64,000 nucleotides of DNA, from positions 54,694,922-54,758,921 of the forward strand of contig NC_079163.1 of NCBI RefSeq assembly GCF_947563725.1, written 5' to 3'. Shown piece by piece: positions 775 through 31,341 of this stretch (position 1 is the stretch's first letter; the number at the start of each line of letters is the position of its first letter). The notes under the pieces are model-generated. The model saw only the letters and a program-made list of their open reading frames with translations, ran no database searches and was not told the DNA's origin. The DNA is from Argiope bruennichi. Its lineage: Eukaryota. The translations under genes and the position numbers were made by a program.

Positions 775-812
775 AGTTGTCTAAATGGGACGTAAATATA
801 ACTAAACTACTT
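775..812 (+). mobile_element. Possible 3'-tail fragment of the same SINE family
   Basis: GTCTAAATGGGACGTAAATATAACTAAACTAC resembles the family tail AAAACGGGACGTTGATATAACTAAATTAAACT. Confidence 0.3.
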
Positions 813-1097: not shown

Positions 1098-1383
1098 GGG
1101 ACCATAGTGGCCTGGTGGTAAGAACTCGGCTTAGAAACCAGAGGGTTTTAGGTTTAAGACCCAATACCACCGAAGAACCGTCGCGTAAGCAGGTTTGGTG
1201 CACCTTAAATCCATCGGGGCCAAACATCCTCCCGCTAGTGTGTTGTGGAAGCTTGGTTGGGAGGGGTGCCAGCTCAGGTGTCGTCCTCGTCATCCGACCG
1301 CGGTTCAAAATTACTAGGTCCGTCCCAAAATAGCCCTAGTGTTGCTTTAAAACGGGACGTTGATATAACTAAATTAAACTAAA
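1098..1383 (+). mobile_element. tRNA-derived SINE, copy 1 (reference-like)
   Basis: The 5' head is tRNA-like: box-A-like TGGCCTGGTGG and box-B-like GGTTTAAGACC. It is followed by a central domain and the conserved 3' domain GGTGCCAGCTCAGGTGTCGTCCTCGTCATCCGACCGCGGTTCAAAATTACTAGGTCCGTCCCAAAATAGCCCTAGTGTTGCTTTAAAACGGGACGTTGATATAACTAAATTAAACTAAA. The same structure recurs at six other places in the window. Confidence 0.75.
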
Positions 1384-1983
1384 TGCCTTAGAAAAATGGC
1401 AGAATTGGAAAACAAAACATGGGAGTTGTTGAAGAAGTAAGATTTAATTTCTCCATGTTGAAGACTTTGTGATTGCTGAATATTATACGGACCAGGACAT
1501 ATTGAACTATGTTATGTAACATGAAATTACTAGAATGAATGATGAAGATAATAATGGAGATGATATTGAAATCCTTCCCAAGGACGAGATATTAATAGCA
1601 TTTGTTTACGAAGAAGAAAATGTTCAACAATCTGTAAAATTTTCCTGCATTTTAGAGATTTTTATTGGTATGAATATTTTAATACGTCCTCATGTATCTC
1701 TACCTAACTGCAGCTCCTTTAAGTGGTTAATTGTAAGAAATTTTCCATGCACTGTTAATTGTAAGAAACAATTAACTTTAATGAAAAATTCATGTAAACA
1801 GCCTCTCATACTTGTGATCACATCCTACTTAACAGTGCATGGAAAAAATTTCTGAATATCGCCCGTCTATCCCTCGTCAGGGTAGAAATCAAAATAAAAC
1901 GTTTAATGTGTTATTTAAGAGTGTTATGTGTTATTCAAATTTCTGAAAATTGTGTTGCTCAAATTTTTACAATCAACTGCTCA

Positions 1984-2004
1984 AAAAAAAAAAAAAAAAA
2001 AAAA
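1984..2004. repeat. A21 homopolymer
   Basis: Read directly. Confidence 0.9.
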
Positions 2005-2357
2005 TGTGATCATTTTAGGATTTGAGTTAGTCAATGAAATGGAGTCCGTTTTTGTTTTAGTTTTTTTCCTTCGTTTTTATGAATTATTTTACAAATATCT
2101 ATTGAACGAATTTTCTTTATAAGTAGAAAGACTTCACTAAATAGAGACATGATTTTATTCTATCTTACGTGAATATCCAAACACGTATTCGAAATTCTGG
2201 TTTAATGTGTTTCGGAGCATGATATTTGAGCTACATAAGAATATAAATCAAAGTTTATAATATTTTAAATAGAGAATAAAGTTCTGTGTAGTTTATTTAA
2301 TTTTTAAGAAAAATTCTTTTGTAATAAAAATGTTCATCTGCCTTTTACATAAAAATA

Positions 2358-2617
2358 AGGGCCACGAGTACCTCGTGGTAGAGTCTCGCCTTCGTGATCG
2401 GAGGGTCAATTTTTCGAGACTGATTATGCGGTAAATCCTCTTTGCATATGGATTTGATATTTTTTAAATCTCTTTAGGGGTGAACTCCTCCCATTTATGT
2501 AGAGTGAAAGTTTGGAGAATGAGTGGAATCGGCTCAGGCGTGGTCCTTTTCATTTGATCACGTTTCAAATCCGTTCCAAAGCAGTTTCAAATCGAAACTT
2601 CAGAACTAAACTAAACT
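2358..2617 (+). mobile_element. tRNA-derived SINE, copy 2 (divergent head)
   Basis: The head GGGCCACGAGTACCTCGTGGTAGAGTCTCGCC...GATCGGAGGGT is different. The 3' domain GGCTCAGGCGTGGTCCTTTTCATTTGATCACGTTTCAAATCCGTTCC...AACTAAACTAAACTAGG matches the family. Confidence 0.6.
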
Positions 2618-3257
2618 AGGACTTAAAATAATTATAAATATCTATATGAAACACCTAACATGCACTCAGCATTTTTCTTTATCGTATGTTATTTCGAATG
2701 TGATCTAATAGCTACAATGTATATAAGTCAAAGTTTATAAATTGTTAGGTAGAAAACAACATTCTGTACAGTACATCTGTAAAACAATATACATATATTC
2801 TTTCTTCTATCAAAAGTTGTTTATTTCATAGGTTCACACGTTTCTAATTCATGAAATTTCTTGAAAGTCATCAAGAAAGCTTTGCAACGCCATCTTTTGG
2901 TGTTGTGAAAACTTACTTTCCGGAATACCCTCGTCTTTCTAAAAATATAATTAAATCATCATTTTTGCTGCATATCCTTACATCTTTGCTCAAAATATAT
3001 CTTAACGCATTTTTTTCTTGATAATATCCATACTGTAAACAGAAAACATTATGCATCCAGTATTATGTATAATACCTGGAAGACCGAACTTAGCTCGGCA
3101 TTTTTTTAAATATAAAAGCGTGTTTTTTCTGTAAAAATATTTAGATACTGATCGCATACGGATTAAATATGAATATTTCCCAATCTTATCGACATATGAG
3201 CTGGTCATTTAATAAAAATCATAAATGCACGTAGTTTAACATGTTATTCGAAACAAT

Positions 3258-3306
3258 GCGCTATATTACATTTCGCGCTATATTCATTTTGCGCTATATT
3301 CATTTT
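3258..3306. repeat. Short tandem repeat GCGCTATATTCATTTT, 3 copies, with another copy at 3378-3392
   Basis: Read directly from the sequence. Confidence 0.8.
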
Positions 3307-3445
3307 GCAGTTTGTCTACCATTATTTATATTTTTGCTTACACTGAGTTTTATCATATAGAAATTGGGTCCAAGATGGCGCTATATTACATTGTCAGCAT
3401 GAGAGTAGATAGAAAAAAGCTCTAATTGTTAGATATAAAAAAAAA

Positions 3446-3493
3446 GTGTGTGTGTGTGTGTCTGTGTCTGTGTCTGTCTGTCTGTGTGTGTGT
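3446..3493. repeat. Compound (GT)n/(CTGT)n microsatellite
   Basis: gtgtgtgtgtgtgtctgtgtctgtgtctgtctgtctgtgtgtgtgtg. Confidence 0.95.
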
Positions 3494-5675
3494 AAAATCA
3501 CGTTTTTTCAGGAAAGACACCTACAGAGATCAAATTAAAGAGAAAAACATTAAATGTAAATACATAAGTAGAAAAAATAAAGCAAAAAACGGGAGTCCAA
3601 CCGAGGACCCACAACACACGCGTCATTCATGTTGTTCTTGTCAGTATACTGCATTACCCACACTTCGAAGCGGAATATACTTATTCTAATATTTAGTTAT
3701 AAAAAATCTTTTTTCGTGTGTAAAATCGCGTTTTTGCAGTAAAGACACCTATATAGATAAACTTAAAAGGCAAAACCTTATCTAAATATAAAATTTTATC
3801 CAAAATTTGATAAAGGAACGCAAAATAAATAAATTTATATATATACCAGAATTGCTTGTTTAAACTTATATATTAAGAATGCACTAGGCGATGGCCAGAA
3901 TTCCATTTAAATCGAGGATTTTAGTGGAAAATCAGAGAAATGCTTTTCTCCATTTTATGGCATTAAACGCTTGGTACTTTTAAACCTCCTATAGGTTTAC
4001 CTATTCACTTCTTCACTCGTTAACAGTAATCTATTAATCTATCATGCATATCTGTATACATTAGGACAGTAGCGTACAGGGTAATTAGACACTGTGTGCA
4101 GGTTCATTAGAGACTGTTATCTGATAAGGTGGATATCGAATGAAGAATGAATTTTTAATGATTTAGTGATATAGCATATGTACCAACCAGTACATAGTTG
4201 TAAAATCTCTTCTAGCCTACCTTTCGTACCATCCCCATTTTAAATCACAAAGATATACGATGTAATCCCTTTAGACCGGTTTTGAATTTGCTTGTTTCTA
4301 TTTTTCTCTCATACTTGTTGGAGTACAATAGGAGAAGAAAGTACAGAATAATTTGGTACTGTGTACAGGATTATTCGAGACACAAAAGTTGAATAATAGG
4401 AGAAAAAAATTCCTACGTCTTAGTGGTAATCTTATCTATCAACCTTTACATGGGGGAAACCAGTACGACATTTTTCAATCGTAAAAAAATTCTAAGTTAT
4501 GTTTTTACATATGAAGAAAGGAGAACCATTATTACACAGAACCAATACCTGTTCAAAACGCTTTCTATACAATTTTACACAAACCAATGTAATTGGAATT
4601 GATTCACATAAAACAAGTGTTTTCGTATTATGTATTTTCATGCGCAGCGTTATATGCATTTATATATCTCGGCTTAAACTATAACTCGAAATGGGTATTT
4701 TTTTTTCCTTGGAGTGGGATCCATATTCTAAGGCAAGAGTAACGACAGGGTATTCTTCCATTATACTTTTCTGTTTCAAGAAAATGAAACATTTTATACT
4801 TCTCAAGTAAACTTTCGGGACATTAAATCTTGTAAGCTACTTTTACATTATTTTCGGAAAAGATATCTTTGATTATAATAAAAATAAATGGTAAACTCCT
4901 TTTACAGTTAGTCTCGACTCCCTGATCGATATCGTAGGACTTACTACAGAAGCTCTGATCTAGAAATTCTTTTTTCTAGGGCCAGACTAATGAATTAAAG
5001 ACAAAAGAACTGCGAATTCGGAGGGCGTTTCTAACAAAACATAGTTCCCTGCAAGCAAATACTTTAAATTCATAAATTGTCTGAATATCTGTCTAATCTT
5101 ACCGAACAAAAGATATTCTATGAGAGTTTAAAATTCATACAAGCAAAACTGTTACTTAACATATTAAATAAAAAATTCAAGAATCTTCATAAAAATATTA
5201 AAAAATTATAAAAATTTACAATCAAATGCTTATCTGTTAAGCAACGTTTTGCAAAGGATTAAAGACCAATTAACGTGTCAAAACTCAGATTTTGTTATTT
5301 TGATGACATGAAAATTATATGAAGTTTGGTTTGAACACGCGATGATTTTATTATTTAATGAGGCGATTAGGACGCCAACCAGATTTCCAGGTGAAAAAGC
5401 ATTTTTTAAATTTCTTTTTTTAATCTAAACTGAATGGTTAAATTATTATTTATGATAATTCATATTTGGTGCTTTAAATTTTTTTTCTGTAAAATAAGTT
5501 AATTTGCAGCTTGGATGGTAAATTAAAAAAAAAATATATCCTCATTAATTCATAAATCTGTATCCGGACAGCCAATAAATAAACAGAATAATAAAATGTT
5601 TAGGTGTGTTTCTTTTTTTTTTCCTTGTATCACCATGGAATATAGTATAATTATCCTCTATTGACGTTTAATGCC

Positions 5676-5917
5676 GCAATGGATTGTTGATTACGATTCA
5701 GCTTCAGGATCGGAGGGTTCCCGGTTCGAAACCGGATTTCAAGGAAGAATCGCAGCATAAACATCCGTCAAGGCAGAATGTCCTTTTCCGCGGTAGCTCG
5801 AGGAATAGGCGGCCCACTCAGGTGCCATCCTCGTCACCTGACAGCGGGTCTTATTTATAAAGCCTTTTCCAAAATAGACATAGTGTTGTTTCAAGATGAG
5901 ACGTTAACGTAACCATA
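5676..5917 (+). mobile_element. tRNA-derived SINE, copy 3
   Basis: The head shows GATCGGAGGGTTCCCGGTTCGAAACCGGATTTCAAGGAAGAATCG. The tail shows ACTCAGGTGCCATCCTCGTCACCTGACAGCGGG...AAAATAGACATAGTGTTGTTTCAAGATGAGACGTTAACGTAACCATA. Confidence 0.65.
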
Positions 5918-6966
5918 TTCGCCTCACACCTAGATGAAATCATTCCTTCAGGCTATAACTGCAAAAGAATATTATTTACTCTCTCATCATAAGCAAGTGA
6001 AGATTTTTTAATTCTAAGTATATTTTTAAATTGTTCATGAATAAGGGAATATGGAGCAAATCTTATTTTTTCCTTCGCAGTTAGACTAAAACTTTCATCT
6101 TAACAAAAATTCAGAAGTGATATTGGCTAACCATAACCAGGAATTTGATTAGCACTCTATTACCACCGACGCCCAGAAAGGAAAGAAGCCGTAAAAATTT
6201 TTTTAGTCTTTTATTCATTTTAGGCGGGGATTTTCTCTAAAAAGAACTGACCTGGCATTTCTTTTGAGACTTTTGATTTTCACGCAGTGCGGCAGATCAA
6301 CGTTAGACAGTTAAAGTTACAGTAATTAAACCATGAAATTAGAAAGAAAAACCAAAAAATCCTCACGACTCAGAAGTAAAGTAAAAGCGTTTTTATGTTT
6401 GAATTTAAGTGGTTAGAAAAACACGGAAAAATTTTATGAATTATATAGTTAAGGAGGGAGGTAGTGAGGACTTAGAGAGGGGGGGGAGTAAGTTTTTTTT
6501 TTTAAAGACTACTTCATTTGGAGGTCCTTCATATCCCTCATCTAGCTGAAATTGAATGATGAGTACCACAGCAAACATGTTCAACGTACTTTATTTTTTT
6601 ACCTCGAAGAATTTAAGAACATTTTTTATTTGTCTGAAAATTTTTATAAATAGTTATAATGTTGTTGATCTTGTCTTTTGTTGTCATTAAGAGGTAATGG
6701 AAATAAAAAATAACTGAATTAAAAATAATATGTTAACTAAAATGAAAAAGAACAATAAATGAAAAACGAAAATGTTCACTTATCATGCTACCCTAGTAAC
6801 AAATATATACTGCACAGTATCTTTCAGTATCGACAATATCGTATGATTCTGCATAATACCATTAATAACATATAATAGCAAAAATATTGTACAATGTCAT
6901 AAATCATGTTGTGCCGCTTGGATTTCTAGATATGTGGGAGGATATAAAGAAGGTATTTCACTTCAT

Positions 6967-7040
6967 ATTTATGCATAGTTTATTCATATAATTTATGCAT
7001 AGTTTATTCGTATAGTTTATGCATAGTTTATTCATAGTTA
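6967..7040. repeat. Tandem repeat of about 21 bp, ATTTATGCATAGTTTATTCAT, about 3.5 copies
   Basis: The unit repeats visibly with small variants. Confidence 0.85.
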
Positions 7041-8700
7041 TTTATTCATATTATGCATATGCTTATCAAAGTGCCTCTTATAGAAAAAATAAACATACAA
7101 AAATACTAATCGAAATACAAGAAAGAAAAGAGAAGAAATTCATGGAAAGAATATCATAAAAATATTACTCTTAGGGAGGAGAAATAGCCAAATTATTGAA
7201 AGAGTAGAATATTTTCAGAGCAATGATTAGCGAATTATCATTAAATAAAGGACATTATACCCTCAAAAATACCAATAGAATATTAAACAATCCTAGAGTA
7301 TCTTATTCTTATTATTATGTTTTGTCAATTTTTGTATCTCTGTGTTAAATAATGTATAAAATAATTGAGTCATTTGTGCTATATTTTTCCTATTTCTTTC
7401 TAATTATTTCAATCAAACAGGACTTGAGAAAACATTACTTGTAAAAGGAAAAAATCTAATGAAGATCTTTATTCTCAAGACCCTGTGTAATAAGAGAGCC
7501 TCCTCTTTGAAAAAAAAATACTCGAGAAATGATGCTTTTATTTGCGGAATACTTATCAATCTCTAATTCATGCAATATACAGCTCTAAAAGCTAAATGCT
7601 AGAATTATACAGCCTCTTGTGCGAATTTCTTTTTTAAGGCAGAATAATTATGAATAAAAGATAATTATTTCGTCTCTATTGTCCAGCTTAATTCAAATTA
7701 AAGTATGATCTATTCTTTCGGTGGTTGAATAATAAATAATTCAGATGGTTGAATAATCATGATAGACACAAAGTTTCGGTAAATATGTATTCTGTTAGAC
7801 ATTATCTGAAAATGGCAGTAAGGTATTACTAGCGCCATCTGTGGGGTAAAAGCGTAAAGAAAAGATTTCGAGTGAAAAATAACACTGAAATATTAAGCAT
7901 CCTTTTCAACTACATATTTTATTTATTTTCCCTTCAGATAACAATATTTCCTGGTATTTTTTAAAAATTTTGTTTGTGTTTCATTGTTTCTTGTTCTTAT
8001 ATATTTTTTTTCATGGCGCTTCATTTCAGTATATATTTCTTTCTTTATATTTCGCTATAAATTTCGTTAATAATCAATTTTTATCTGTACTTTGGAGAAT
8101 GGCAAATAAAATAGTTAGAAAATGAAATGAATTTTCACTAAGTTTCTAGACTTTTAATATTAGTGAAATCCTTTCGGTGTACATTTATATAAGTGCATAC
8201 TGATTCAGAAGTAAGGAAAAGTTTTAAAAAATCAATAAATCGCAAATAAATCATATGTAAAGATACCGACTGCATAAAAAGAACTGAAATAAAACTGAAA
8301 TCTTTTGAAGATGAAATTAAAAATTATTAATTGCAGAGAGTGCAATTTAAAACACTGTTTTTGAAGGTGGTAAAGTGATATAATGTGTAAAATAAAATAT
8401 CTTAAAATGATTTAGTATGTCATCGTCCATTCTGTAGTAATATTCTAATAAGAAATCAGTTTTTCACAGCATTATGTGACGTTTCTGTCATTATCTTCGG
8501 ATCTCTCTCAATTCCCTCTTCCGTATGATTTGGTATTGTGGAGACTAGAATAAGACTTTGTATAAACTAGCCGCCTTCAACGATCAGCTGCTCAATCATC
8601 ATTTCAATTTTCTGAGTGTTTTCAGTCTCAAAATTTGACAGATTTATCTAAAAATATTTTTAATTGATTCCTTAAATGAAATACTTATTATCTTTCATTA

Positions 8701-8956
8701 CTCAGATCGTTATGTTTGAGAGTTCCTGGTTCGAAACTCGATTCCATCGAAGAACTGTAGTGTAAATGTATTTGATGCAATTAAATCCGCACAGGTCCAA
8801 ATATCTTTCAGTTAGTGTAATGCGGAAGTTTAGAGACGGGGATGCCAACTCCAATACAGCTCTTTTTATTTGACCACAGTTCAAAATTATGTGGTCCATA
8901 CCAAAATATAGCCCACGGATTTCTTCATAATGGGACATTAATATAAATACTAAACT
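8701..8956 (+). mobile_element. tRNA-derived SINE, copy 4
   Basis: The head shows GAGAGTTCCTGGTTCGAAACTCGATTCCATCGAAGAACTG. The tail shows GACCACAGTTCAAAATTATGTGGTCCATACCAAAATATAGCCCACGG...AATGGGACATTAATATAAATACTAAACT. Confidence 0.65.
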
Positions 8957-9673
8957 CTTATCCATAATAAAAATTTATTAAGACTAATTTAGTTTTTACA
9001 CATTTTTTTAAATTAAACTTTGTTTTTTAATATATTGTTGTTTAATATTCCCTCTTCAGTTGAGAAAATGTCAGGACCTACACTTTCTCGAGTTAGTAAA
9101 ATACATAAAATTTTTCAAGATATGATAGACTAATGAAAACAATCATTCAGATAATCAACTTTTTGCAGATGCAAGTGTGATATCAGAATACAGATGTCTG
9201 GAATGCAAGTATTACAGATAAAATTGAAGCCATTCCTGTTGTGTCAAGCTATGTTGTGGATATAAAAAATAAAATCAGTGAGGTATAGAATCGTGCAGCA
9301 CAAAATCAAACTAAATGAATTGGACCGATTTTAAAATTAAGAAGGTTTTATGTATAAAACTGCTAATTATTAATTCTGTGTTATTTTTTATCATTATTTT
9401 ATATAAGTCTATTGCGTTCGGAACTTTTATTAAAATATTGAGTTTATGTTAAGCCTTATATATTGCTGTCGCAACAATGCTACTGATACTGGGCAAAAAC
9501 AATGTATTTTGAATACGGAAAAAATATATTCAATCTCATTGAGTGATATAGTTTTTTCCTGCATTCTATAAGTTCAGAAATAACATATTTAAAAAGTTAG
9601 TTCTTCAAACATTACTATTGTTTAATGCCTTTTGCATTTTTCTCAGATTTTTATAGAGGGACACAGAAATTGG

Positions 9674-9920
9674 AAGGATGGCCACCGCATTGGAGACCTG
9701 AGGGTTTCAGGTTTGAGACAGGATTTCACCGAAGCCGGTCCGGAGCATGATAAATACGTCGGACAAAAAAATCCTCCTATTGGTGCGGCATGAAATTTCG
9801 GAGAAAGGGTGCTAGCAAAAGTGCCGTCCTCGTCATTTGACCGTGCTTCAAAATTATTACCTTCTTCACAAAATAGTCCTAATGTTGTTTTAAAACGGGA
9901 TGTTGATATATAAGTTAAAT
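9674..9920 (+). mobile_element. tRNA-derived SINE, copy 5
   Basis: The head shows GGATGGCCACCGCATTGGAGACCTGAGGGTTTCAGGTTTGAGACAGGATTTCACCGAAG. The tail shows GTGCCGTCCTCGTCATTTGACCGTGCTTCAAAATTATTACC...AATAGTCCTAATGTTGTTTTAAAACGGGATGTTGATATATAAGTTAAAT. Confidence 0.7.
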
Positions 9921-12900
9921 AGACTTTTACTTGTATTGATGCAAGTGTTTTCTATTCTCTAAAACTTTTTTTTCTGTTTAAGATAGAATTTTGAAATCTT
10001 TTGTAGATACATTCATATATAGGGACTACAAGAATATGTATTTAAATCTGTGAGCTCGAATTATTTTTAAAACTGTCAAAAAGATTGCTTTTAGAATTGT
10101 CATAATTTTTGTCAGGTTTAGATACAAAGAATCAAATCTTCATTCACATACCAGCGTTTGTTTCCAGTAGTCCAACAAATAAAAATAACTTAAAATGAAA
10201 ATATTAAATATTATGTATCTTACAAGAATTTTAAAAATCTCACTGAATAAATGGACCTGCTAAGCTGACCTTTTTGTGATAATCTGTTTAATAGTATGCT
10301 TTTAATATTACTGTCCTTAAATTACAGTTGCCCTACTAACAATTGACAATAAAAAATTAATTGGCGAAATCGGTCCGGTGGTTGTGGGATCTGCCAAAGC
10401 ATTATTTTGCGATATCTGCGATAAAACGTAGTTTTGCTATATGGAGAACGGTGGAGAGAAAGAGAAACATTGATGACAAGTCTTAGGGTCATAAACTTTT
10501 ATATGAAATGAAAATCATTAAAATTGGTAGAGTGGTTGTGATTGGGAAACTCCGTCACGGTTTTTATCTTAAGAGAATGCTTAATGAAGTAGTGTTTCCA
10601 AGATTTTTTTTCAAAAAATGGAATGCATAGGGGGAGAAGGTCACCGTTGATACATATCTAGGGGTTGCAAACTTTCTTATAAAATAAAAATCTGACTAAT
10701 GGTTAAAACTAAGGTTTTGATCCTTGGTTTTTGCCTTTATATATTATCCATGTCAACTATGCTATTATCTTAAATGCAGTTTTTCTGAAACTATTTAAGT
10801 ATGGGTTAAGAATATGACACATTTTATAAAAAAATTATTCTATTCAAGCATTATTAAATTAATAAAGCACTAAAATCAATTATAAGAAATAACGCATGTG
10901 TATGAATCCATTCCGGTCGTTGCACGATAATAAAACTAGTTATGTTATAAACACGCCATTGGTATTATGTATTTTGTGTTATTAACCTACTGTCATAAGC
11001 AAAGATAATTACATTTTTTGTTGAAAAACCAACAATACTAAGATCTTTTGCCATCAAACCCTATTTTTGTGTTACCCTATAATATCTAATTATTTCTTGA
11101 GCATTTCTCTTTGTATATTCTCAAGCTAGTCGCTTATTATATCCAATTTTATACAGTTCTGTTTCGAGTATGGCTGTATCGGCTGGCATCAAAAATGTTT
11201 TGTGTTTTCTATCTTCAGTTATTAGATATTAACTTAATATTTCAGTCATTAAACATCTTTAAATGTTAACGAATGTGAAACTTTTAAGTTATTCATAATT
11301 TCAATATAAAATGCAAATTATTATTACAGAGTCATCAAATATGGAAATATATAGAAAATATGAAGATTTTCATTTAATACTAATTGATATACTCGGTGTT
11401 ACTCAGTATAACTCTTTCATGGAAAATATTTCTAACTTGGAAAATATTTTGTATAAAATTAAAGAATACACAAAGTCCTTTTATCGTCTGAGATGCTCTT
11501 CAATTAAAACTAGAATATAAATTGAACCAAACGATTTTTAAAATTCATTTATAGCCGATTTCGTCCATAATTTATTAATATTTGTCATATTAGTATTCAA
11601 AATTTTGTTCGCAAAAGTATGAGAAAGATTTTAATGAAAATTTTGAAACAATTAATAATTTTTCATTATTGGAAACATAAAAATAAACCAAATCAATAAT
11701 TGCTCCAGATGTAAATTCTTAATCGAATGCTTTATTTTTATTTTTTAGAATTTCGCTAATGTGTTCTGGAAACAGAATTTCATGTGTATTTTTATTCTTC
11801 AGCAATAAAAAAAAAATATTTCATTTGCTCTTTAAAGTTATATTTTTCTAGCTTTCGTTTGAATTGGAGTGATGAACTTATGCCTTCTCTTAGCCGCTGA
11901 TAAATCATTACTTTCAAACTATCAAAGCATAGATATATGTATAACGATATGAAATTTAAAAAAAATAGTGTTAAAGTAGCTTAAAGTTTCAACAATATTT
12001 AACTAAGATGCACTTATGCTTCCTTATTTCAAAATTGTGAATTATTTTTTTTTAAATTAACAATAATTAAAAAAATAGCAAATCAAAAGTGTGAATAAAT
12101 TTTTTAAAAAATACCAATAATTAAAGGAAAAATCGCACAAATGTGAAATTTGTATCATTAAAAAGATAAAATTTTGAATTTTTAAATGGTGTAAAAATAT
12201 TTTTCTAGGATAATTTCCTCCGAAAGTTACTATGGGGAAAAGACTAAGTCGGTTAATTTTTCATAACCTGAAGTCATCGCTGCTGTTTCAGTCGCTCTCA
12301 AAAGCTTTACTCCCCCCCCCCCTGAGTGATTGACACGTGCTTGCTTTTAAGCATCGTTAAATAACTACTCTATTGCCAGTAGAAGAAGTTGTGAAAAGAT
12401 ATGTATAAATAAAAGAGGAATTTTGAAAAACAGCTGTGCTACTACCGAAGGAGAACTTTCCTTATTTTAATATCATCTAAGATAAATTTTTTAATTATAA
12501 CATTTGAAGGACGCAATAACTACACAGAAATGTAACAGTACCAATTACACAAAAATGTAATTGGCACTGTTGGAACAGTAAAATTTTGAATTTTAAAACT
12601 GTGTAAAATTATTATTTCTTGAGTAATGTTTTCCATATATATTTGGGGGGGAGCAATATTTTTGTTATTTCTAATTAATTCAATATTTAATTTTTGTATT
12701 TTGAAAAATTCGCAATATTCTTTGCCTTGTCTTGTATAATAAGTGTTCAAAATTTGGATAAATTTGCATCAGTTGTTTAAAAGATGTGGAATTACGTACA
12801 TTCATAGTCACGATGACTTTTATTTGCTTTAAAATTTCAACCCTTCAAAATTTTTCAGTTACTTCGTTGATATAACAGATTATTTATATTCATAAAGAAG

Positions 12901-13423
12901 AGAGGGCTAGTTGTAACGATTTTTGTAAAAATGCTTATATTGTTTAATTTTTTGCGATTCCTTGATTGTAACTATTTTTAGTAGCTAAATTATTTATTCA
13001 TAATATGGATAAAAAACATACAACGATTTTATTGGCTTTTGTACCAGAAATATTTTTCAAAACTTGCCGGCTGTTATAACTTGCCTTGGATATGAAGCAA
13101 ATCGTAACAGATGCGACGCAAGTTGTGATAATAAAAACAATAATATTTAAAATTATTTTCCTTTTACCATTTTTTCATTAATTAAAATGCACAAATCATT
13201 TGATAATTATTATTTCTTGAAATAATGATAATAAATGTTATCAAGCAATCTACTATAAAATATAGTTAAAATTATTTAACCAATTAGCATAAAAGTCAGT
13301 CTACAACAGAATTACAATTAACGCAACTAAATGGTTGACTGCTTCCTATCGTTCATATTTTGTACTCGTATTTTGCAAATTAGAAATTTGACTTATTTTT
13401 CCCTCATGAAAATTGCGAGTCAT

Positions 13424-13693
13424 GGAGGTCTGTTCTTTAATGTCTTATCTCCGGGGCTGGTGTGTTCCGGATTCGAGACCGGATTTCACTGAAGAACCGC
13501 TATGTAATCGGGTTTGGTGTATGCCAACTCTCTCAGGGCCAAACTTATTCCAGCTGGAGAGGCGTGGCAGCTTAAAGAGAGGGTGCCAACTTAGGCGCTA
13601 TCTTCATCATCTGAAAGTTATTAAAAGTACATGGTCTGCCTCATAATAAAACTAATGTTGCTTCAAAACGGGATGTTAGTGAAATAAACTAAG
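13424..13693 (+). mobile_element. tRNA-derived SINE, copy 6
   Basis: The head shows GGGGCTGGTGTGTTCCGGATTCGAGACCGGATTTCACTGAAGAACCG. The tail shows GGGTGCCAACTTAGGCGCTATCTTCATCATCTGA...AATGTTGCTTCAAAACGGGATGTTAGTGAAATAAACTAA. Confidence 0.7.
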
Positions 13694-16600
13694 CTATAAC
13701 ATATCGTCAAAGTTTTTGCATGCATCTCTGAGAGCTAATACAAGACCATTTTTCTTTCTCCAATCAGAATTTATACATTGGTTCAAAAGTCTTTTCTTCA
13801 CTCTTTATTTTTTCCAGAGGAATTTTTTTTCTTAAACCTTTAACAATTTAACTGTTTCGACCTCTTCTAAAAATGTGTATCTAAAATGTCATATATATAT
13901 ATATTATGTAAATATAATAAATGTTTAATTTATACATTTATAATTAATTAATTACTATATAAATATAATAATTGTCATTGAATAATCTTGCCATAATGCC
14001 AAATGTTCTACTTCTTCCATGACGAGAATACTCGTTAAAAACAGTCAACTGGTTAATTTTCTTTCCTTTTTTTCATATTTTAATTTCTTATTATTTTCTT
14101 TTTCTGCTGCTTCTTTTCAGCTGTATCAATAAGGAAGAGATTTTTTGTTGTTATTGTTATTGTTATTAAGGGAGCGTTTGTTAGATCTCTTTCTGAAATA
14201 AATCTTTAGGGAGATATCTAAAGTTTGAAAGTGCCTGATAATATATATATATCGAATATAATAACAGAAAGCCGAACTGCATTGATCAAGCACAAATCAA
14301 GACCAATTTCGCAAATTGTAATCTGTTATAAGTTGCCTCATGGCTGAGTTTCGGGTATTTTTGTTGATTAATAAAAGAATACTGCGATCAGAAAAAATAA
14401 AAAAAAAAAATAACAGCAGTTTTTTCAAATTTATTACTTAGAAAAAATAAATAAAATATTTTTTGAAAAGATCTACTCAGTTATCTTAAATCAAAGTTTA
14501 CGAAATACTTTTTCTCCTATTAACTAGCTAAAATGAAGCAGATGGTCACGAACTCTTATTATTCGTTTCGGTTGATTACTAATTGAGCTGATGTGATAGG
14601 GCCTGCCGTAAGAATTGCTTTCAAAGAAATTTCTGATTAAATTTTTTTTAAAAACCTATGCATAAAGTGTGTGTCACAATTTGCCCGTCATAACTTACCC
14701 CAGGCTTTCCTACTAAGGGATACTTTTCAAAAAATTGAATTGACGCAAATTTTAAAATAAAGGTGGCCTTTTTATAAATAAAAACTGCTTGTACTTACTA
14801 AAGCTACTACTTTAATTCGATTGATATTTGTTGTTTGAATATGTAATAATTACTTTCTGAATAATAAGCTCCGTTTGAATACTTCCAAATCGGAAAAAAT
14901 AGCTCCAAACGTGTTAAATAATTGGCTATTGATTCAAGGGTGCGATGAAAAATTTTAATGAATTTTTTTTAATAAATGAAGGAAGAAAAGATTAATGAGT
15001 TGGCATGTATGGAGGAACATTCGAGAGGAATGGTGATACCGCATAGAAAATCACAGCAATAAAAATATATATATACATACAACATTAACAAAAAAATTCT
15101 GAAAATCTAGCATCATTAATTGTCAAACTCGTCTTAACGATATATTTTAGTGAAAGAAGTCATGTTATTATTATTTGTTATTATTATTATTATTATTTTC
15201 ATGTCTCTCTACTTTGAATTGTGTTATTAATTTAACATAGAGAGTACGGCATCATAACAGAACAATAACTACGTTTTGAAAAATTGATCAGTCTAAGCTA
15301 CAAAGATTAATGTTAGAGCTACTTAATTTTTATCAAGTTATTAAAGGGTAGTGGTTGTTTCTCGCATCATTTGTTAAATTAACATACAAAATACCCCTAA
15401 ACAGCGGAATAGGAATATCCAATGGCATTTGAATTTAAAATGTTTGAATATTTGTTACTATAATTACAAATACTATGTAAATGGTTAGTTTTAATTGAAT
15501 TGAATCAGCATGTGTCATCCGGCCAAGATAATAAAGAAATTTTGCAAATTTTTGCAGGGAATCTAATAAATAGCCAATAGAGCCATAAAATTCAGTTATA
15601 AAAATAGTTTTACAATGTTTTATAGGATTTCAATAAGGGAAATATTTTAAAAGGATATTACAGAATACATTATTTGTAAAAATTTCTGCGAATAAAGTTA
15701 TTATTTCAATTTAAATAGTAAATGCCTTTAAAAATGCAATTTTGCAATAATGTTATTTAACATCGCTAATTATTCTTCCTTCCCTGATTTGTATTTTCTC
15801 TCCAAGCGCTTTAATTTCATTAACTTATGAATCTTTCACTTGCTTTGAAGATATTTTAAATTTCCGCTATGGTCAAAGACAAATCAAGCTCACGGAGCAA
15901 AGCGTGTGTGTCATTATCCTTTTTCAATATTACTTAATATATTCCAAACAAAATAATTTATATAATTAAACAGAAATAAATCTTAAACACTTATAATCGT
16001 TATTCTACGTAATAAAATTCTATATACGAAATTAAAATTGCATAATTATACAGGCTTTTCATGTAATGCGATCCTATTGTCGTCGAGAGACAAAGGATTA
16101 TCAGGTCGTCACTTTCCCAGACGGATGAATAATAAGAGGTAGACACACTTTGTGGTCCCTAAAGTCTTTCATCCTGCCGTATTATTATTTCTTTCTGTAG
16201 GTACATTTCAAGAATCTGCTCTATGACACTTCTTTTGAATATGAAAAGATATTTATTGCTAAAATTTTGGCATTTGCTGCTGAAATACGTATCACTGTTC
16301 CAGACAGGTTGAAACACACTTTCACATTTTTCCTACTGGAGATAAGTAGCACTGTAAATTGTAAAAGAATTCGAAATAAATAGGAAAGAAGAATGTTTAT
16401 GAATCAGTCGTGCTATTAATTTTCAAATAATTGTACTGTTTGAAACTTTTTACAATTCCTGTAACAAAATTGGTTAGTTATAAATGTTTTTTTTTTCCTG
16501 CAACTAGATCATGACAAAAAATAAATTTACTTGTTTATACTTTTATACTTGTTTATTTAATGACATAAAGAAAGAAAAATATATGGCTGATACAATTATT

Positions 16601-17228
16601 TTCTACCATCTACAATGATGTTTCACCAACGGAAATAGGGAACATTGACTAATTTATAGATAAGAATTATCTATAAATTAGTTGTTATATAAAAATTATC
16701 TTAACAAGTAGTAACCCTTTGCCCTCGGAAAAGTAATTCAATTAATAATTATTCGCCTAACACAAAGACTTGTTTATTGCTCCGAAATATATATAATTGT
16801 TTTAAGTTGAATTATCCCGTTTAAATAATTTGCATCTTCTAACTACTCTGCATGTATTTTTAACAATCAAAATTAAATAAATAAATAAACACAACGTCAA
16901 AATAATGCACTGTCTTGAATGGGGAGTAAGAGTCCCCATTCGAGTGCAAAGGGTTAAAATATTCTATCATAAATATGTCAAAAGAAAGTATTATAGAACT
17001 GGAGATCATTTAAAAGGAAAACATAGTTTAAAATCTTGGAAACTTTATTCAGAAACAGCAATACGCAAATCAACCTTAAAATGTTTTCCCTTAACTCTTG
17101 TGAATAACTATGCTCTAATAATGCTCGGCATCCATAATATTGTAACAAATATAGGTCGCTGTTGTTTTAAAACATTTACTAACATTTAGACATAACATAA
17201 ACTTGTAACATAACATAAACATAGATTT

Positions 17229-17296
17229 GAAAAAGGGTTTGTATAGCTTGTAAACTTAATAAACATTAAGTTTACAAGCTATACAAACCCTTTTTC
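17229..17296. repeat. Perfect 68-bp palindrome with 32-bp arms and a 4-nt spacer
   Basis: GAAAAAGGGTTTGTATAGCTTGTAAACTTAAT, then aaac, then ATTAAGTTTACAAGCTATACAAACCCTTTTTC. The arms are exact reverse complements. Confidence 0.9.
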
Positions 17297-20200
17297 GACG
17301 TTGGCCTTATAAATATAAATGAAACGAAATGAAATTGGGGGATATAGGGGCTCCTACCAAACCAGCGTACTGCATATTAATGCTTTTATTTAACATGTTT
17401 ATTACATTTGCAGCCTCGCATGCCATCATGATGATAATAATTTTTTACAAATGATAATACTGTTTTTTTCTAAAATCTATTCCAGGTTCTTTCAAATGTA
17501 TTTCATTTGTAAAAAATCGTTCATAAAGGATTGGACCAAGAAATTTTCTTTTCTAAATTTCACACCACAAGGGCACAAAAACGCTATAGCGGGATGTTCC
17601 ACAACAACAACAACAAAAAAGAAAACCAATCGTATTATTCGAGTAATGATCGTTATATTTATAGTTTCCCCCATCACCATTTTACAAACATTCGGCTGTT
17701 CAGAAAATCTTCTCACAAAATCTGAATCTATGTAATACTGGTTTAATAATCACTTGCAGAAAACAACACATCGGAACCAAACCATTCCGTGAAAGTTCTA
17801 TTGTGAAAATCAGAATTGCAGCATTGAACGTAAACAATCATCTCTATCAGTGTAGAAGTGTTTGATACTTAATCAGGAATACTTAATCATCAGTGCAATA
17901 TTATCTACAGATCAATGTAGATCAGTGACAGCAGTGTGAGTTGTTGAGAGAACTGTCGACTGCTTCGGATGCAAGTCTGAATGTTGAACAATAATCCATC
18001 CTGGATGACTACGCTGTCTCTTACTTTAATTTTTTGTATGGAGAGGGCTCTTTATCACCAATTATGTATAAAAAGATCACAGTCGTACGGTGCATCCCGC
18101 CAGATGTGTTCAAGACTTTCGTAGATTTAGTTGATGTATCACACTTTATTTGGTCATCAAGAAGGTAAAGAAAACTTTATAAGATTATCGAAATTCTATC
18201 CATAAGATTACTGAAAGAAAACAGGATGTTTTGGAAATTGCTGCTAATATTTGTGTTGCTTGTTTGAAATAACAGCGGGTTGATGTCAGATTCGTGGAAC
18301 AATAGAAACTATTATCCCACCCTATGCTGACAAAATGCTTCGTAAGATATAAGCTGTGATCAGAGCACATGGTGATATTTAACCGAATATTAAGTTTAAT
18401 AAAACCTGATTTCATAGTATTTTATCCGAAGAATTCACATCCTCGGTTTCACTATGGGGGCTCTCTAGCACCTAAGCTGCTCATTTTCTACAAAATTAGG
18501 ATTTAACAGAGTATATATTGGTTTTGATATGTAATGTCCTCCTTTTCATCTTCATTTCCCTGAATCACTTTGAATAAACCATACTTGTTCAGCTAACATC
18601 AGTGCACTAACAGGACATATTTAAAGGATTGCAGCATAAATACGACTGTACAAGCCCTCTTCCGCACTATATTCCACTTTATTAAAACTGAAAAGTAGAA
18701 AATTATAAGATCAATTGAGCGAAAAGTGTAAACCGGTTGTTGAAAGAGAATATCATTCGCATTACTTAAGAGATATAAATTAAGGACAAGAAACAGGTCT
18801 TCATAAATTTTTACATCATATTTCTTCCAAAGAAAATTAGGTCCTTTCAGTTACGAAACAAGAAAAGCAGTATCGAAATTTGTTTATTAACTAACTAAGT
18901 TTCATTTGGGTACTTATATATCACTCATAGTTCCGAAAAATAACGATTCAAATTTGAATTGACACTATTTTAATTGAAATTTCTCGAGAATGACATTGAG
19001 AAACGAACGCTCGTTTGTACGTAATTCGTGGGAGGTTTTCTAAGCTGTAATTTGCAGCAATCCCTTAAATAGTGAGTACAAAGTGTACTGTGTACATATT
19101 TTCTTAAAATTATGTGAATTTGCTAAGTGATAAGTAATTCTTAATTTTGTTCAGAGGAAGAATGGTCATGAGACGGAATTGTTTCTTTCCCTTCGTTAAC
19201 TCTTCTTCGCAGGAAAAAAACACACACATATAGGACTCTACTTATATCAAAGTGCTTTAAATAATGTAAAAAGTTTGAAATCAGTGTTAAAGTAGATACT
19301 CTTAATTTAATAATTCCTCTATATTATAAATTCTATTCAAAATAATGGCTGGAATTTTAAAATTGTACACTTACCACGTGAACTTAACTTTTCTAATGTA
19401 TTAAAATTCAGTTTAAAGATCAAATCCGAATACAGTTAAACTTGCTTATACCGATCACGAAGGGGCCACGATATTCGATCGTTAGAACTGAGTGATTGTA
19501 AAAACGGGGCCGTGAAAAAATTATAATTCCTACATATTTATTATACATACTTACTTTTATCACTTTTTTTTATTTCTGAAAGTACACTAGAAGTTGTTTT
19601 ATTTGTGTTGAATTGTCTTGTTTTCTCTTTCTTGTGTTATTTGTTCTTTGCAACAGACTCGTGCCCCGAAAAGCATCGACATTTAAATCCTGCCTTTGAA
19701 AAAAAGTTTGAAGTTTTTCTGCTCATTTAAATGCTATTAAGTATGCTGGGGGCTGTTCGGCTTGAAACTCTTCAGATTCGACATTATCATTGTGGCTTTT
19801 GTCATTTTTTTTTTTTTTTCATCTGCTTTAGCTTGAATTTTAGCTAAAATATCTTCAGGAGTAGGTATCTCGGAAGTGATAACATTGAAAATTATGTATC
19901 TGTTGACGCCAAATTCTTTTCTACTCATTTCCCAAATTTGCCAAGTGATATACGTCTTATGACTCATCATTGAGTTCGGAATATTAAAAGGGTTTTTTTT
20001 CTCAAGAAGGGATTAGCTGAGCTGGAGAGCTGGAAGTCAAATTTATAAAAATATTGTTCTGTATAACCAAGGTTTAAATGCTCGTTAAAAGCGAGTAATG
20101 CTCCCAATAGACTTAACATTGCACCTACCAAGTATTTAAGATTTCGTCATTAAATCGGGGTTCGTTATACGAGAGTTGTATTGTAAGAATATTAGTTACT

Positions 20201-20496
20201 CAGAAAGACTATTAACTAGATTCCAATGATATAAGTTACACAACTAATCAAAAAAGAATATAAGCTTCTAAAATATCTATAAAACACATGGGCTTGAGAT
20301 ACATAATGTTAAATTAGAATTAAATTTTTATAAAGTTTATGATTCGAAAAAAGTGTTCGTGGAATTCTTATGAGTTATGCTTATCTCAATCTTTGTTCTG
20401 TAATAAACAATATATATATATATTATCAAATGTATCACTGTGCCACTTTTTACGATTTTTCCATTTATGAATGTAGTTTGAAATGTAAAATTACAG

Positions 20497-20770
20497 TAGT
20501 TTAGTTTAGTTATATTAACGTGCCGTTTGAAGCAACACTAGGGCTATTTTGGGACGGACCTCTTAACTTTGAACAGCGGTCAGATGACGAGGACGACACT
20601 TGAGCTGCCACCCCCCTCTCCACACCACACCAGCGGGAGGACGTTTGGTCAGGACGGATTTAACGTGCAACTGACCTCCTTACATGATGGTTCTTCGGTG
20701 GAATCGGGTCTCGAACCTGAAACCCTCCGGTTCCGAAGCCGAGACCTTACCACCAGGCCACCGCGGCCTC
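20497..20770 (-). mobile_element. tRNA-derived SINE, copy 7. It is the only minus-strand copy and the best-preserved tRNA head.
   Basis: The reverse complement reads GAGGCCGCGGTGGCCTGGTGGTAAGGTCTCGGCTTCGGAACCGGAGGGTTTCAGGTTCGAGACCCGATTCCACCGAAGAACCATCATGTAAGG...GGCAGCTCAAGTGTCGTCCTCGTCATCTGACCGCTGTTCAAAGTTAAGAGGTCCGTCCCAAAATAGCCCTAGTGTTGCTTCAAACGGCACGTTAATATAACTAAACTAAACTAC. Confidence 0.75.
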
Positions 20771-22289: not shown

Positions 22290-22435
22290 CTAAAAATAAG
22301 TAATAGCAGAAAGTTCAAATAACAATTACTTATATTTTTATTGATAAAAGTTTATTTTGTGCAGGAAAACGACTTTTCTTTTTAAAAGCCACAATAAAAA
22401 TTTAGTCAAACAAAGAACACAAATATTTCTGTTAA

Positions 22436-22724
22436 CCCTTTCTAGGGCCGTGAGAAGTATGCTTCCCACCAAATTTATCAATCTTTGTATGAAATTATGC
22501 AGGTTGGCATACGTTCTGACAAATTGTTTTAGTAAGTCAGGAACTTAGATGCTTCAGTTCTTTATCTCACATAAAATGATGTGTCTTGGTTTGTCAATTA
22601 TTAATTAATCAAATTAAATTTATCTATTATCTTATAAGTTAAATGAATTCCTGTTCTTATTCTAATTTCAAGCCTAAAAATATTTTAACATAATATGACT
22701 AGAAAAAAATTACCCTTTAAAGGG
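22436..22724 (+). mobile_element. piggyBac-type MITE, copy 1 (289 bp), in the last intron of the WD40 gene
   Basis: It is flanked by TTAA at 22432-22435 and 22725-22728. The termini are CCCTTTCTAGGGCC at the 5' end and CCCTTTAAAGGG at the 3' end, an imperfect terminal inverted repeat. It is about 88% identical to the copy at 47391-47686. Confidence 0.65.
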
Positions 22725-24118
22725 TTAAATTATAATTAATTAGCCTTCAAATTATTCTCTGAAATTAAAATGCAGACTTAAAGTACAAAGCATCATTTGT
22801 AGTTAATCTATAAACATAAAATTCAAAATTTCAAAGAAAATATATAAAACTTTTTTTTTTTGCAGTTCTTGATTCTTTAATAATACAATTTTGTATACCT
22901 TTAATAAAATTTAAAAACAATTATGAAACTGACTTTGATGAGCATGAGAAAGAGTTAATGTATCTTAAAACAAATTTCTATAGGTTTTTAAAACTGAAAT
23001 TATAAGAGCTTAGTATTTCTCCAGTAATATCAAATTTCAAAAAGCATTTTGCAAAGAAACTCATTCTATTTTTTTTAAAGTAATGATAAAATATTCACTA
23101 TAAGCATTTGAAGTATTTCCTCCTCAAATTAAACTCATTATCAAGCTGGTATAAGCTAAAAATTCCCCATATCTGCAATGAATATTATATCACTCCATGA
23201 ATTTTTAATTATCCAAAATAAAAATCAGGTAGAAATTAACTTCTCAGTTTTAATATAAAATCATTTATAATCCATTTGAAAAACAGATTTTTAAACTAAC
23301 AAATAATAAATAACAAGTCTAAAAATATGATATTTAATATTAGTATCTCGTATCAAAACAAATGTTTGAAGAATTAGTAAACCATTTTAAATCCCTAATC
23401 AACGTATGCTACTTATAATATGATCCGCATTTTTTGACACTCCAAAGATTTAAATAATTCATAAAGTGTTGAACAGAATCCAACAGAAATTCTGCAATGT
23501 ATTATATCTCAACAAAGAAGAATTACATTATCTTTCTTCAATGTGTCTATGGCTCCTCTTATGACAAATAACGATTGACTGACATTGTAAAGCATTCATA
23601 TGGAGACAACTTGCTGTCCATAAGTGCTATAAATTTATAAAATTTCAGAGGTGGCTATAGTTTTAATATGAGATTTGTATGAAACTGATTGTTTGTTTGA
23701 CCGATTACAATACTAAGCATTTTTAAATATGTTCGTTTATATATTCGTTATTCATATTTTTCCCTTTTATGTACTTCACTGCTCAATATTGTCGTTACCA
23801 ATATTTTAAGTTATTTAATCACATTTTTGAAATAATAATAGCCTTATCAAGTATTTAACAGCTATCATACGATTAGTTAAATGATGTATTAGCCAAAAAA
23901 TTGAAAATGAATGATTTTACTTTACAAGCAAGTTCAAATGTCTGTGAGGTAACTAAGTTGGATCTCAAGACACAATAAAAAACAATTGAAGAAAGTGATA
24001 TTCGTAAACTGGAACTCTAGAAAATTTTTTTCCAAAAAACACTCTTTAAAACAAATAAAGTAACGGAACGAAGATTATATTAAATCGTATTTATTTAAAA
24101 AAATATTTATATACATAC

Positions 24119-29624: not shown

Positions 29625-31341
29625 AAAAATAGTGTTACACCTACAGATAACCAAAACAAGTATTAGTCATAGCTTAACAAAATTATTAATTATACATATG
29701 CAATTTTGATGAAATGCGTCTTTACTTAAGCATAATGGAACTGAAGCATCTTAACTTTTTTCAGTGTATAAAAATATTTATTAATTTAATTTTATACATA
29801 ATATTAAAATCCATTACCAATCTAATGAAATTCCTTCGATAGCTTTTGATCGTTAGGTGAAAAATAAGGGGAAAAGATATACTACTTTCTGTACTCAGTA
29901 TTGCTTTTAGTCACAGCTCCGAATTTCTGCTGCTGCGCAAGTACAATAATAGAACATTCGTTTCTTTATAAAATTAAAAAGGCGATTCCGAAAATAAGGT
30001 TCTAAAAACACTAGAAATGTCGTTTTATGCGGGTTTTTTCCCCCACAGAAGTAACTCTTCATGAGCCAAAAATTAGAAAATAATTTTCAATGAAAGATAA
30101 ATAAAAATTTAGAAATAGTGTACCATATAATTTTTCTATAAATAAATCGAAAAATAACATTATTACATGTGCATTATTTAATACAAATTTTGTGATTTTT
30201 TTTATTGCTCAGCCATACTGAGAAGATTTTTATAAATGAGAGTAAGAATTTCAAAATAACCAAGAAGCTTTATTTCAAAGTTCATTTTTTAAAAGAAAAT
30301 TAATTAAAAACTAGCAATTGCTTAGCTACAATTTTTTAATAAAATTTACCTACATCAAGACGGAAATCTAATTATTATTTTTATTAATTTATAATTAAAC
30401 TTTTCATAAAGGTAAATTTTATATCAAAAAGCAAAACTATATATGCTGTAACATAAGTATATGTTAGAGCACCCATTGCTGCACAAACTACCACTAACTC
30501 TAAGAAATGGGAAAGCAGCCCTCTGAGCATATACAAAAATAGCAGATGGCATGATAATTTCATCAACAAATAGTAATCCTTCTCCACTTCACTAAGCGCA
30601 AATCGGGCAATCGACAGTTTAAAATATTTTTTTCTCCGTGTTACCGCTTTATTACTGTATTTTACTGAAATCTCAGGCCAGAGGGAATTTAACATCATTA
30701 TAAAAGGTTGAATATTATTAAATATTTCACTTATTTTATACTTTTTTAAAAATAACAATTTAAAAAGCCCTTTTTTTGAAGAGTCACATTTTTTTTTTTT
30801 TTTTTTTTTGTACTTTTTTACATTCGTCCTTTTTTTCCAAATTTTGGAGCACAAATTGACAATTTATGTATTCTTAGATTTTTATTTAAGATTTTTTTTA
30901 AATAATACTTATTTTCTGCACATGAAATCGTTAAGAAATTTAATTAATGTAATTTGTAGCATTTATTCAGAAAAAAACTGTGTTTTACATCTAAAATATG
31001 CGCTACCTTATTCAAATTAAATACATTACTGCGTTCAATAGCACATTTTGCATCACTTTTTACAAATTATAAAAATTGAGAGCTCCAAACAAATAGTTTT
31101 TCAAGAAAACGCACACAGCTGTCCTCTGTTCTCTCATCCAATGCTAGATTTTGTGCCATTTAGCATTAATTTATTTCGCAAGCAGTATGATCTACAATTA
31201 TGTTGTTGTTGTTGCTAATCTCCATGGTCTGACTTAGTCAGACCAAATCCAAAAATCCATTGACAAGAAGAAAGTCAAAAACGAGAAAGGGAGAAGAATA
31301 AATTTCTCCCCAATGAATTGGTTTTGTATCACAAGGTTGTA

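Follow-up and report, generated by a model that had tools for sequence, protein, structure and literature searches.

Copies of a SINE family with a weakly tRNA-like head in the downstream flank of a WD40 gene of the spider Argiope bruennichi

The 64-kb stretch of Argiope bruennichi DNA analysed here (hereafter, the window) harbours a WD40 gene, whose body carries other transposons such as a LINE and two MITEs, and a cluster of short repeats in the downstream flank of this gene. A protein search with the WD40 exon gave no match, and an exact look-up of ten ORFs of the window returned none either, perhaps owing to stop codons in the reference sequences. Profile and BLAST self-searches of the window revealed seven copies of one element of ~283 bp within positions 1098-20770, with nhmmer E-values between 1e-47 and 1e-85, confirming the SINE cluster described there in the initial annotation. 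The consensus of the element is 283 bp long. In the whole window, nhmmer detected ten copies and fragments, which are short, dispersed, multi-copy and non-coding, at a density of ~1 copy per 6 kb.

Two copies in the flank are close to the consensus. Copy c1 (1099-1389, plus strand) is young, with 13% divergence, and is flanked by a 10-bp target site duplication (TSD), AGAAAAATGG, at 1090-1099 and 1390-1399. Copy c7 (20497-20769, minus strand), the youngest, is 8% diverged and possesses a TSD of 11-12 bp, (T)ACTGTAATTTT. The copies had been described as clear, but five out of the seven are 28-35% from the consensus, all of them old and on the plus strand. These are c2 (2359-2618; 33%), whose 3' domain has suffered deletions and whose tail is AACTAAACTAAACTA; c3 (5672-5924; 31%), whose middle region has an internal deletion and whose B box, GGTTCGAAACC, is perfect; c4 (8686-8956; 35%, K2P 0.49), the oldest, with a degraded head start; c5 (9658-9925; 30%); and c6 (13417-13697; 28%). 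The terminal motif quoted in the initial annotation as common to all copies was matched by just two of them at ≤3 mismatches, and its description is therefore loose.

Outside the cluster, three further pieces were found. The one fragment previously counted among the clustered copies was not detected within 1098-20770; a tail-only piece lies just outside, at 781-810 (plus strand), and consists of the final ~30 nt of the 3' domain followed by AACTAAACTA (hmm 250-279, nhmmer E 0.002). This fragment is either an extremely 5'-truncated SINE copy or the 3' end of a putative partner LINE. The gene body, said to hold at most one short fragment, possesses two decayed copies: a 5'-truncated one at 46749-46948 (minus strand; hmm 56-279, nhmmer E 6e-16), and a heavily decayed one at 54353-54565 (minus strand; nhmmer E 7e-7), in which the B-box-like GGTTCGAAATC is kept.

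The seven flank copies could be aligned with MAFFT across the full ~283 bp, heads included, and not just over the 3' domain. The 3' domain is, as previously proposed, the best-conserved part of the element, with a mean pairwise identity of ~66% vs ~55% in the head and middle. Structure prediction for this domain gave no conserved RNA fold (-2.15 kcal/mol, no covariation). The element ends in a tail of (TAAAC)n type, also present as (ACTAAA)n.

The lower identity of the heads would fit a scenario in which c2 and other copies carry different heads on a common 3' module, acquired via module exchange or as chimeric subfamilies, and c2 also lacks two blocks of the 3' domain. Nevertheless, a single head consensus fits every head, and in this alignment the A boxes and the B boxes line up. 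The head of c2, formerly taken as different in kind, is the same as that of the other copies: it aligns to the common consensus and is 65% identical to the head of c7 (73% in the 3' domain), in a copy that is 33% diverged overall. The lower head identity is largely explained by base composition, which also argues against head exchange, since the head is GC-rich (68% GC, vs 48% in the 3' domain) and GC sites in old copies change faster (substitution of 0.34-0.42 vs 0.17-0.25 at AT sites). Exchange of heads is thus considered very unlikely.

The consensus possesses an A box, TGGCCTGGTGG, at position 11 and a B box, GGTTCGAAACC, at position 54, with tRNA-like spacing. Six B-box-like sites were found vs 1.1 expected by chance, and five out of the six are located within SINE copies. 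The Rfam tRNA model matched two heads over its full length and in the same register, that of c7 (14.9 bits) and that of a copy at the Araneus ventricosus locus L004 (18.3 bits), neither of which reaches the gathering score of 29. This model gave no match to three other SINE heads, and ARAGORN at default settings detected no tRNA. Relaxed ARAGORN calls on the consensus were artefacts wrapping around the sequence ends and were disregarded. On the basis of its sequence, the head may be regarded as weakly tRNA-like, or tRNA-related. The earlier view of the family as SINE-type retroposons whose head is tRNA-related is supported by the A and B boxes, the TSDs and the tail, with tRNA-model scores that are sub-threshold.

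The TSDs of c1 and c7 are perfect and differ in sequence, and TSDs of 10-12 bp were also present around five copies in A. ventricosus. The five old copies in the flank have no recognisable TSDs, as expected after decay, with a possible one of 7-9 bp at c2. Copies truncated at the 5' end and ending in ACTAAA/TAAAC repeats are present as well. The copies are between 8% and 35% diverged from the consensus (K2P 0.08-0.49), and a repeat search revealed no homology between the flanks of the copies. A cluster of this kind could also originate from local segmental or tandem duplication of a SINE-bearing block, and a short direct repeat around c2 (2241-2292 and 2721-2772, 77% identical) is in agreement with such an event. 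However, homology between copies is confined to the SINE itself, the TSDs of c1 and c7 differ, and the copies form a star-like pattern in which each is nearer to the consensus than to the other copies, so that duplication is extremely improbable. We therefore regard the copies, with high confidence, as insertions that occurred independently, most of them long ago, and that belong to a single tRNA-related SINE family (~283 bp) of araneid spiders.

In the proposed mechanism, the internal promoter of a source copy, with its A box at position 11 and its B box at position 54, would direct transcription by RNA polymerase III. A putative partner LINE would supply the reverse transcriptase, which would recognise the RNA via the 3' domain and the (TAAAC)n-like tail and, by target-primed reverse transcription, copy it into chromosomal DNA at a nick. 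The expected outcome would be TSDs of 10-12 bp and sometimes 5'-truncated copies. We infer polymerase III transcription and LINE-mediated mobilisation, the latter from these hallmarks, because no partner LINE was found. The LINE of ~4 kb in the gene body (31195-35300, minus strand), whose protein is 93% identical to a LINE protein of Argiope bruennichi, as fits an Argiope-like host, had been proposed as the partner from its portion at 31.2-32.6 kb. Its end, near 31195, is a (CAA)n tail, and its sequence does not resemble the 3' domain of the SINE; as the single LINE compared, it leaves no LINE with a SINE-like 3' end in this comparison. A scan for tails of (TAAAC)n type that do not belong to SINE ends, covering the window and A. 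ventricosus loci L001-L005, yielded only an inverted, MITE-like pair in L001 and the fragment at 781-810, and upstream of the latter no LINE or reverse transcriptase ORF was detected.

The distribution of the copies had been read as an insertion hot-spot or as selection against SINEs inside the gene. Seven out of the nine substantial copies are located in the first 20.8 kb of the 64 kb (binomial p=0.007, a nominal value, as the boundary was picked post hoc). A true hot-spot in the flank, or purging of SINEs from the gene body, is nonetheless unlikely: the boundary of the test was set after the data were seen, the insertion ages are widely spread (K2P 0.08-0.49), and the gene body tolerates the two SINE copies, the ~4-kb LINE and the two MITEs. 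The distribution in A. ventricosus is equally patchy in a small sample, with four copies in 4 kb at locus L002 and seven hit segments in 8.7 kb at L004, and two out of five 20-kb samples of that genome contain clusters at least as dense as that of the window. The cluster in the window is thus not exceptional, as judged from this small Araneus sample. As reported before, six of the seven flank copies are on the plus strand, with c7 alone on the minus strand, but a strand bias is not supported (p=0.125 for six of seven; p=0.51 for six of nine). The cluster in the downstream flank is best read as slow, long-term accumulation where insertions are tolerated, with no special hot-spot. It is ordinary accumulation of junk DNA and not a new kind of element.

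The same SINE family is very abundant in Araneus ventricosus. Five loci of this spider, 102 kb in all, contained 16 copies (19 hit segments); the 11 further copies among them are distributed as 0, 0, 1, 5, and 5 per locus. In Trichonephila clavipes, Parasteatoda tepidariorum, Uloborus diversus, and Stegodyphus mimosarum, no match below E 0.1 was detected in one 20-kb sample each; as ~2 copies would be expected at Araneus density, this suggests absence from these spiders only weakly.

The translated consensus matches 128 'hypothetical proteins' of A. ventricosus, and a profile search matched at least 2,267 protein cluster representatives, with all ten sampled ones belonging to A. ventricosus. 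One frame of the consensus is open across all 93 codons, and thousands of database 'proteins' match that frame, as would be the case if the copies formed a small family of protein-coding genes, which is how they are annotated in A. ventricosus. Nevertheless, the GC-richness of the element leaves the antisense frames long and open too, the copies contain indels and frame breaks, the start codon is not conserved, and no Pfam domain was present among the matches listed. The A and B boxes and the TSDs, like the tail of simple repeats and the 5'-truncated copies, also argue against a coding function, to which we give hardly any credence.

The annotation of Argiope bruennichi reports 4,643 SINE elements (0.08%) vs 20.5% unclassified repeats (PMC7788392), and that of Araneus marmoreus 0.18% SINEs vs 41.5% unclassified (PMC12103598). 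SINEs of spiders therefore seem under-annotated: few are reported and the unclassified fractions are large, yet the present family occurs at ~1 copy per 6 kb in the window. No published name for the family was found in the literature, either by keyword or by searching full texts for sequence strings of the element. It is possible, at somewhat less than an even chance in our judgement, that this is an unnamed araneid-specific SINE with ~10^5 or more copies per genome, hidden in the 'unclassified' repeats and mobilised by an undescribed lineage of LINEs with the ~110-bp domain and (TAAAC)n at the 3' end, and that it gave rise to thousands of spurious 'hypothetical proteins' in A. ventricosus. 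The value of the analysis is modest but practical, as it yields a clean consensus of a spider SINE with a high copy number. Protein databases are polluted by translations of the SINE, in the form of at least 2,267 protein-cluster representatives, all of those checked by name being from A. ventricosus, and the family could provide presence/absence markers for phylogeny within Araneidae. Current understanding of SINE biology is unchallenged.

Named chelicerate SINEs include Isc-Nin-DC of Ixodes scapularis and the CORE-SINE 'Lipo' of Limulus polyphemus (PMC5804259). Similar to the spider family, both are tRNA-related and possess a conserved internal domain, the likeness to Isc-Nin-DC being one of description only. 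The spider SINE differs from CORE-SINEs in that its body has no significant similarity to the central CORE (~65 bp) of MIR: in a weak test against a MIR consensus, the body reached a local score of 15 vs a shuffle mean of 16, and 337 out of 500 shuffles reached 15. Bm1 and other lepidopteran tRNA-SINEs (PMC8010984, PMC3272025) are also arthropod elements of a few hundred bp, abundant and often near genes; they belong to a different lineage and are likened by description. Compared with tRNA-derived SINEs whose tails are of LINE type and not poly-A, the stringent SINE/LINE pairs of SINEBase (PMC3531059), the spider SINE differs in its tail unit, (TAAAC)n/(ACTAAA)n, in a parent tRNA that is not assignable, and in that no LINE sharing its 3' end was found. 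Nonetheless, it resembles those pairs in its length of ~280 bp, in its TSDs and 5'-truncated copies, and in its build: a tRNA-like head with internal A and B boxes, then a non-tRNA body and a 3' domain to which a short tail of simple repeats is joined.

The downstream flank of the WD40 gene region contains exactly seven copies of one SINE family within 1098-20770, according to two nhmmer profiles, the first built from 7 copies and the second from 14 (E-values 1e-47 to 1e-85). Six copies lie on the plus strand, namely c1 (1099-1385), copy 2 (2359-2618), and those at 5672-5924, 8686-8956, 9658-9925 and 13417-13697, and the seventh, c7, lies on the minus strand at 20497-20769. A BLAST self-search of the AT-rich window (~29% GC), with the element at 1098-1390 as query, recovered six copies, and copy 2 matched itself alone at that sensitivity. 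MAFFT aligned all seven over their entire length, heads included. The profile count and this alignment bear out the seven copies of one family proposed in the initial annotation, of which the terminal motif holds only approximately (2 copies match at ≤3 mismatches). The profiles also detected a tail-only fragment (781-810, plus strand), and two minus-strand copies in the gene body, one decayed and 5′-truncated (46749-46948, E 6e-16), and one very decayed (54353-54565, E 7e-7).

The consensus of 14 copies, seven from the window and seven from Araneus ventricosus, reads GGGGCCGCGGTGGCCTGGTGGTAAGGTCTCGGCTTCGGGACCGGAGGGTTCCAGGTTCGAAACCCGATTCCACCGAAGAACCGCCGTGTAAGCGGGTCTGGTGCACGTTAAATCCGTCGGGGCCAAACGTCCTCCCGCTGGTGTGGTGTGGAAGTTTGGAGAGGGGGGTGCCAGCTCAGGTGTCGTCCTCGTCATCTGACCGCGGTTCAAAATTACGAGGTCCGTCCCAAAATAGCCCTCGTGTTGCTTCAAAACGGGACGTTAATATAACTAAACTAAACTA and possesses an A box, TGGCCTGGTGG, at position 11 and a canonical B box, GGTTCGAAACC, at position 54. 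The window has six B-box-like sites, where chance predicts 1.1, and all but one are inside SINE copies. The Rfam tRNA covariance model aligned end to end with the heads of c7 (14.9 bits) and of one A. ventricosus copy (18.3 bits, E 0.089) in an identical register, neither reaching the gathering score of 29; agreement was good in the D and T arms and poor in the acceptor and anticodon stems. Since these scores are sub-threshold, three other heads did not match the model and ARAGORN found no tRNA at default settings, the head appears only weakly tRNA-related, without a nameable parent tRNA. The two youngest copies, c1 and c7, have perfect target-site duplications, AGAAAAATGG at 1090-1099 and 1390-1399, and (T)ACTGTAATTTT, respectively. 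Copies terminate in TAAAC/ACTAAA repeats, several are 5′-truncated with the tail kept, and no terminal inverted repeats were seen on them. The element is a real SINE family, as recognised initially. Because the boxes, tRNA-like head, target-site duplications, tail, truncation and lack of inverted repeats are together hallmarks of this mechanism, we infer that its RNA would be transcribed by pol III and inserted by a LINE enzyme via target-primed reverse transcription.

The copies belong to very different age classes, with K2P distances of 0.08 for c7, 0.14 for c1, and 0.37-0.49 for the other five. A different head in copy 2, read initially as module exchange, is not supported, as this head aligns to the common one with the boxes in register. 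Copy 2 is 65% identical to c7 in the head and 73% in the 3′ domain, and diverges by 33% from the consensus; judged from these alignments, it is simply old. A ~50-bp direct repeat (2241-2292 and 2721-2772, 77% identical) brackets copy 2 at 480-bp spacing, and could stem from a local duplication or be a repeat that predates the SINE and received its insertion. Among the five old copies, the rate of change was 0.34-0.42 at positions where the consensus has G or C and 0.17-0.25 where it has A or T, and GC content is 68% in the head and 48% in the 3′ domain. The stronger conservation of the 3′ domain is therefore in large part due to base composition. The residual excess is small (0.34 vs 0.42 at GC sites) and fits constraint on source copies, without proving it.

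The gene body harbours a degenerate non-LTR retrotransposon of ~4 kb on the minus strand (~31195-35300). It comprises a PRE_C2HC/CCHC gag region (34408-34996, Pfam PRE_C2HC motif), the C-terminal part of a reverse transcriptase (32102-32608) and an RNase H domain (31345-32091, Pfam E 1e-13), and closes with a (CAA)n tail at about 31195-31215. The ORF with the RNase H domain shares 93% identity with Argiope bruennichi LOC129969228, against 55-58% for the next named matches, from Parasteatoda, Uloborus, Trichonephila and Araneus; A. bruennichi or a closely related spider is accordingly the most likely source of the window. The part at 31.2-32.6 kb had been suggested as the partner LINE, which is ruled out by its unlike 3′ end, reading AGCAACAACAACAACA near 31195, and by the absence of an nhmmer hit with the SINE profile at a threshold as loose as E≤10. 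A scan of the window and the A. ventricosus loci revealed no other candidate partner.

Other repeats were also present. Two plus-strand copies of a ~300-bp element (22432-22735 and 47377-47695, ~86-95% identical) lie in the gene body, each bounded by TTAA and the terminal inverted repeat CCCTTT...AAAGGG, and look like a piggyBac-type MITE. A perfect palindrome at 17228-17297 (33-bp stem, 4-nt loop), which folds as DNA at -35.6 kcal/mol (z -11.6), is probably what remains of a foldback element or MITE; each of its strands resembles a plant miRNA model only weakly, with scores well under the threshold. Runs of A (40297-40330, 52043-52090, 57217-57243) and T (44466-44492, 30795-30815, 56396-56413) of ~18 to 48 bases, which lie inside or close to the gene body, could represent the tails of other families of poly-A-type retroposons.

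The gene itself was confirmed by minus-strand WD40 coding exons at 38744-39070 (Pfam E 3e-11) and 62478-62696 (E 7e-8); for the larger exon, no homologue could be detected in a 5.8-billion-protein index, spider proteomes included. A gene body with at most one SINE fragment had been contrasted with the flank; this is overstated given the two decayed copies. An insertion hot-spot in the flank, or selection against SINEs in the gene body, would account for seven of the nine copies lying in the first 20.8 kb (nominal p=0.007), although the boundary behind this value was chosen post hoc. Both are weak explanations, as copies differ widely in age, their flanking DNA is mutually unrelated in a repeat search, and the gene body also holds the LINE and both MITE-like copies; equally dense clusters occur in two of the five A. 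ventricosus samples. The suggested strand bias is not significant (6/7, p=0.125; 6/9, p=0.51). The cluster is most simply read as having built up slowly in intergenic DNA that tolerates insertions.

The consensus has one frame free of stop codons along its whole length, and a search with the translation of that frame matched 128 proteins; the 120 listed are all 'hypothetical protein AVEN_*' of the orb-weaver A. ventricosus, without Pfam domains. A protein profile from 30 of the matched A. ventricosus proteins matched at least 2,267 cluster representatives (866 at E≤1e-10) in a library of 1.84 billion proteins in 50%-identity clusters; ten of ten sampled matches were from A. ventricosus, and no non-Araneus protein was among the matches listed. 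Thousands of these annotated proteins are SINE translations (e.g. locus L001, 10001-10360), some fused into models labelled by UniRef as TNase-like, ISXO2-like transposase or DUF5641, and represent annotation contamination. The main practical consequence concerns repeat libraries and the removal of spurious proteins from spider annotations.

The same element was found at the DNA level, with target-site duplications, in five A. ventricosus loci of 20 kb, each with a SINE-matching 'gene' at its centre. Five copies have duplications of 10-12 bp, unrelated in sequence. Eleven additional copies occur in 102 kb, very unevenly (0, 0, 1, 5 and 5 per locus). Window copies consistently carry CTAGTG or CTAATG, vs CTCGTG in seven of seven A. 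ventricosus copies, and therefore represent a different, long-separated subfamily. Araneid spiders of at least two lineages share the family, which is highly abundant in one of these. No match was obtained in single 20-kb samples of Trichonephila clavipes, Parasteatoda tepidariorum, Uloborus diversus and Stegodyphus mimosarum; together with the lack of non-Araneus proteins among the listed matches, this weakly suggests confinement to part of Araneidae. At L004 10033-10463, a full-length copy is directly followed by a 5′-truncated copy inserted at its tail, which suggests that insertions may be drawn to the simple-repeat tail itself. Two ...AAAAATTAGATAAACTAAAC termini in inverted orientation, 1.1 kb apart (L001, 11818-11827 plus and 12970-12979 minus), look like DNA transposon ends with a chance likeness to the SINE tail.

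Spider genome papers give SINEs only in bulk, with 4,643 elements (0.08%) and 20.5% unclassified in A. bruennichi (PMC7788392), and 28,715 (0.18%) and 41.5% unclassified in Araneus marmoreus (PMC12103598). Six diagnostic strings had no match in print in the literature searched, where the only named chelicerate SINEs found were Isc-Nin-DC (Ixodes) and Lipo (Limulus, CORE) (PMC5804259). The body showed no similarity to the CORE region of MIR when compared with an approximate reference sequence. The architecture and local clustering are ordinary, and the family is at most a new, and possibly unnamed, addition to the well-known SINE class.
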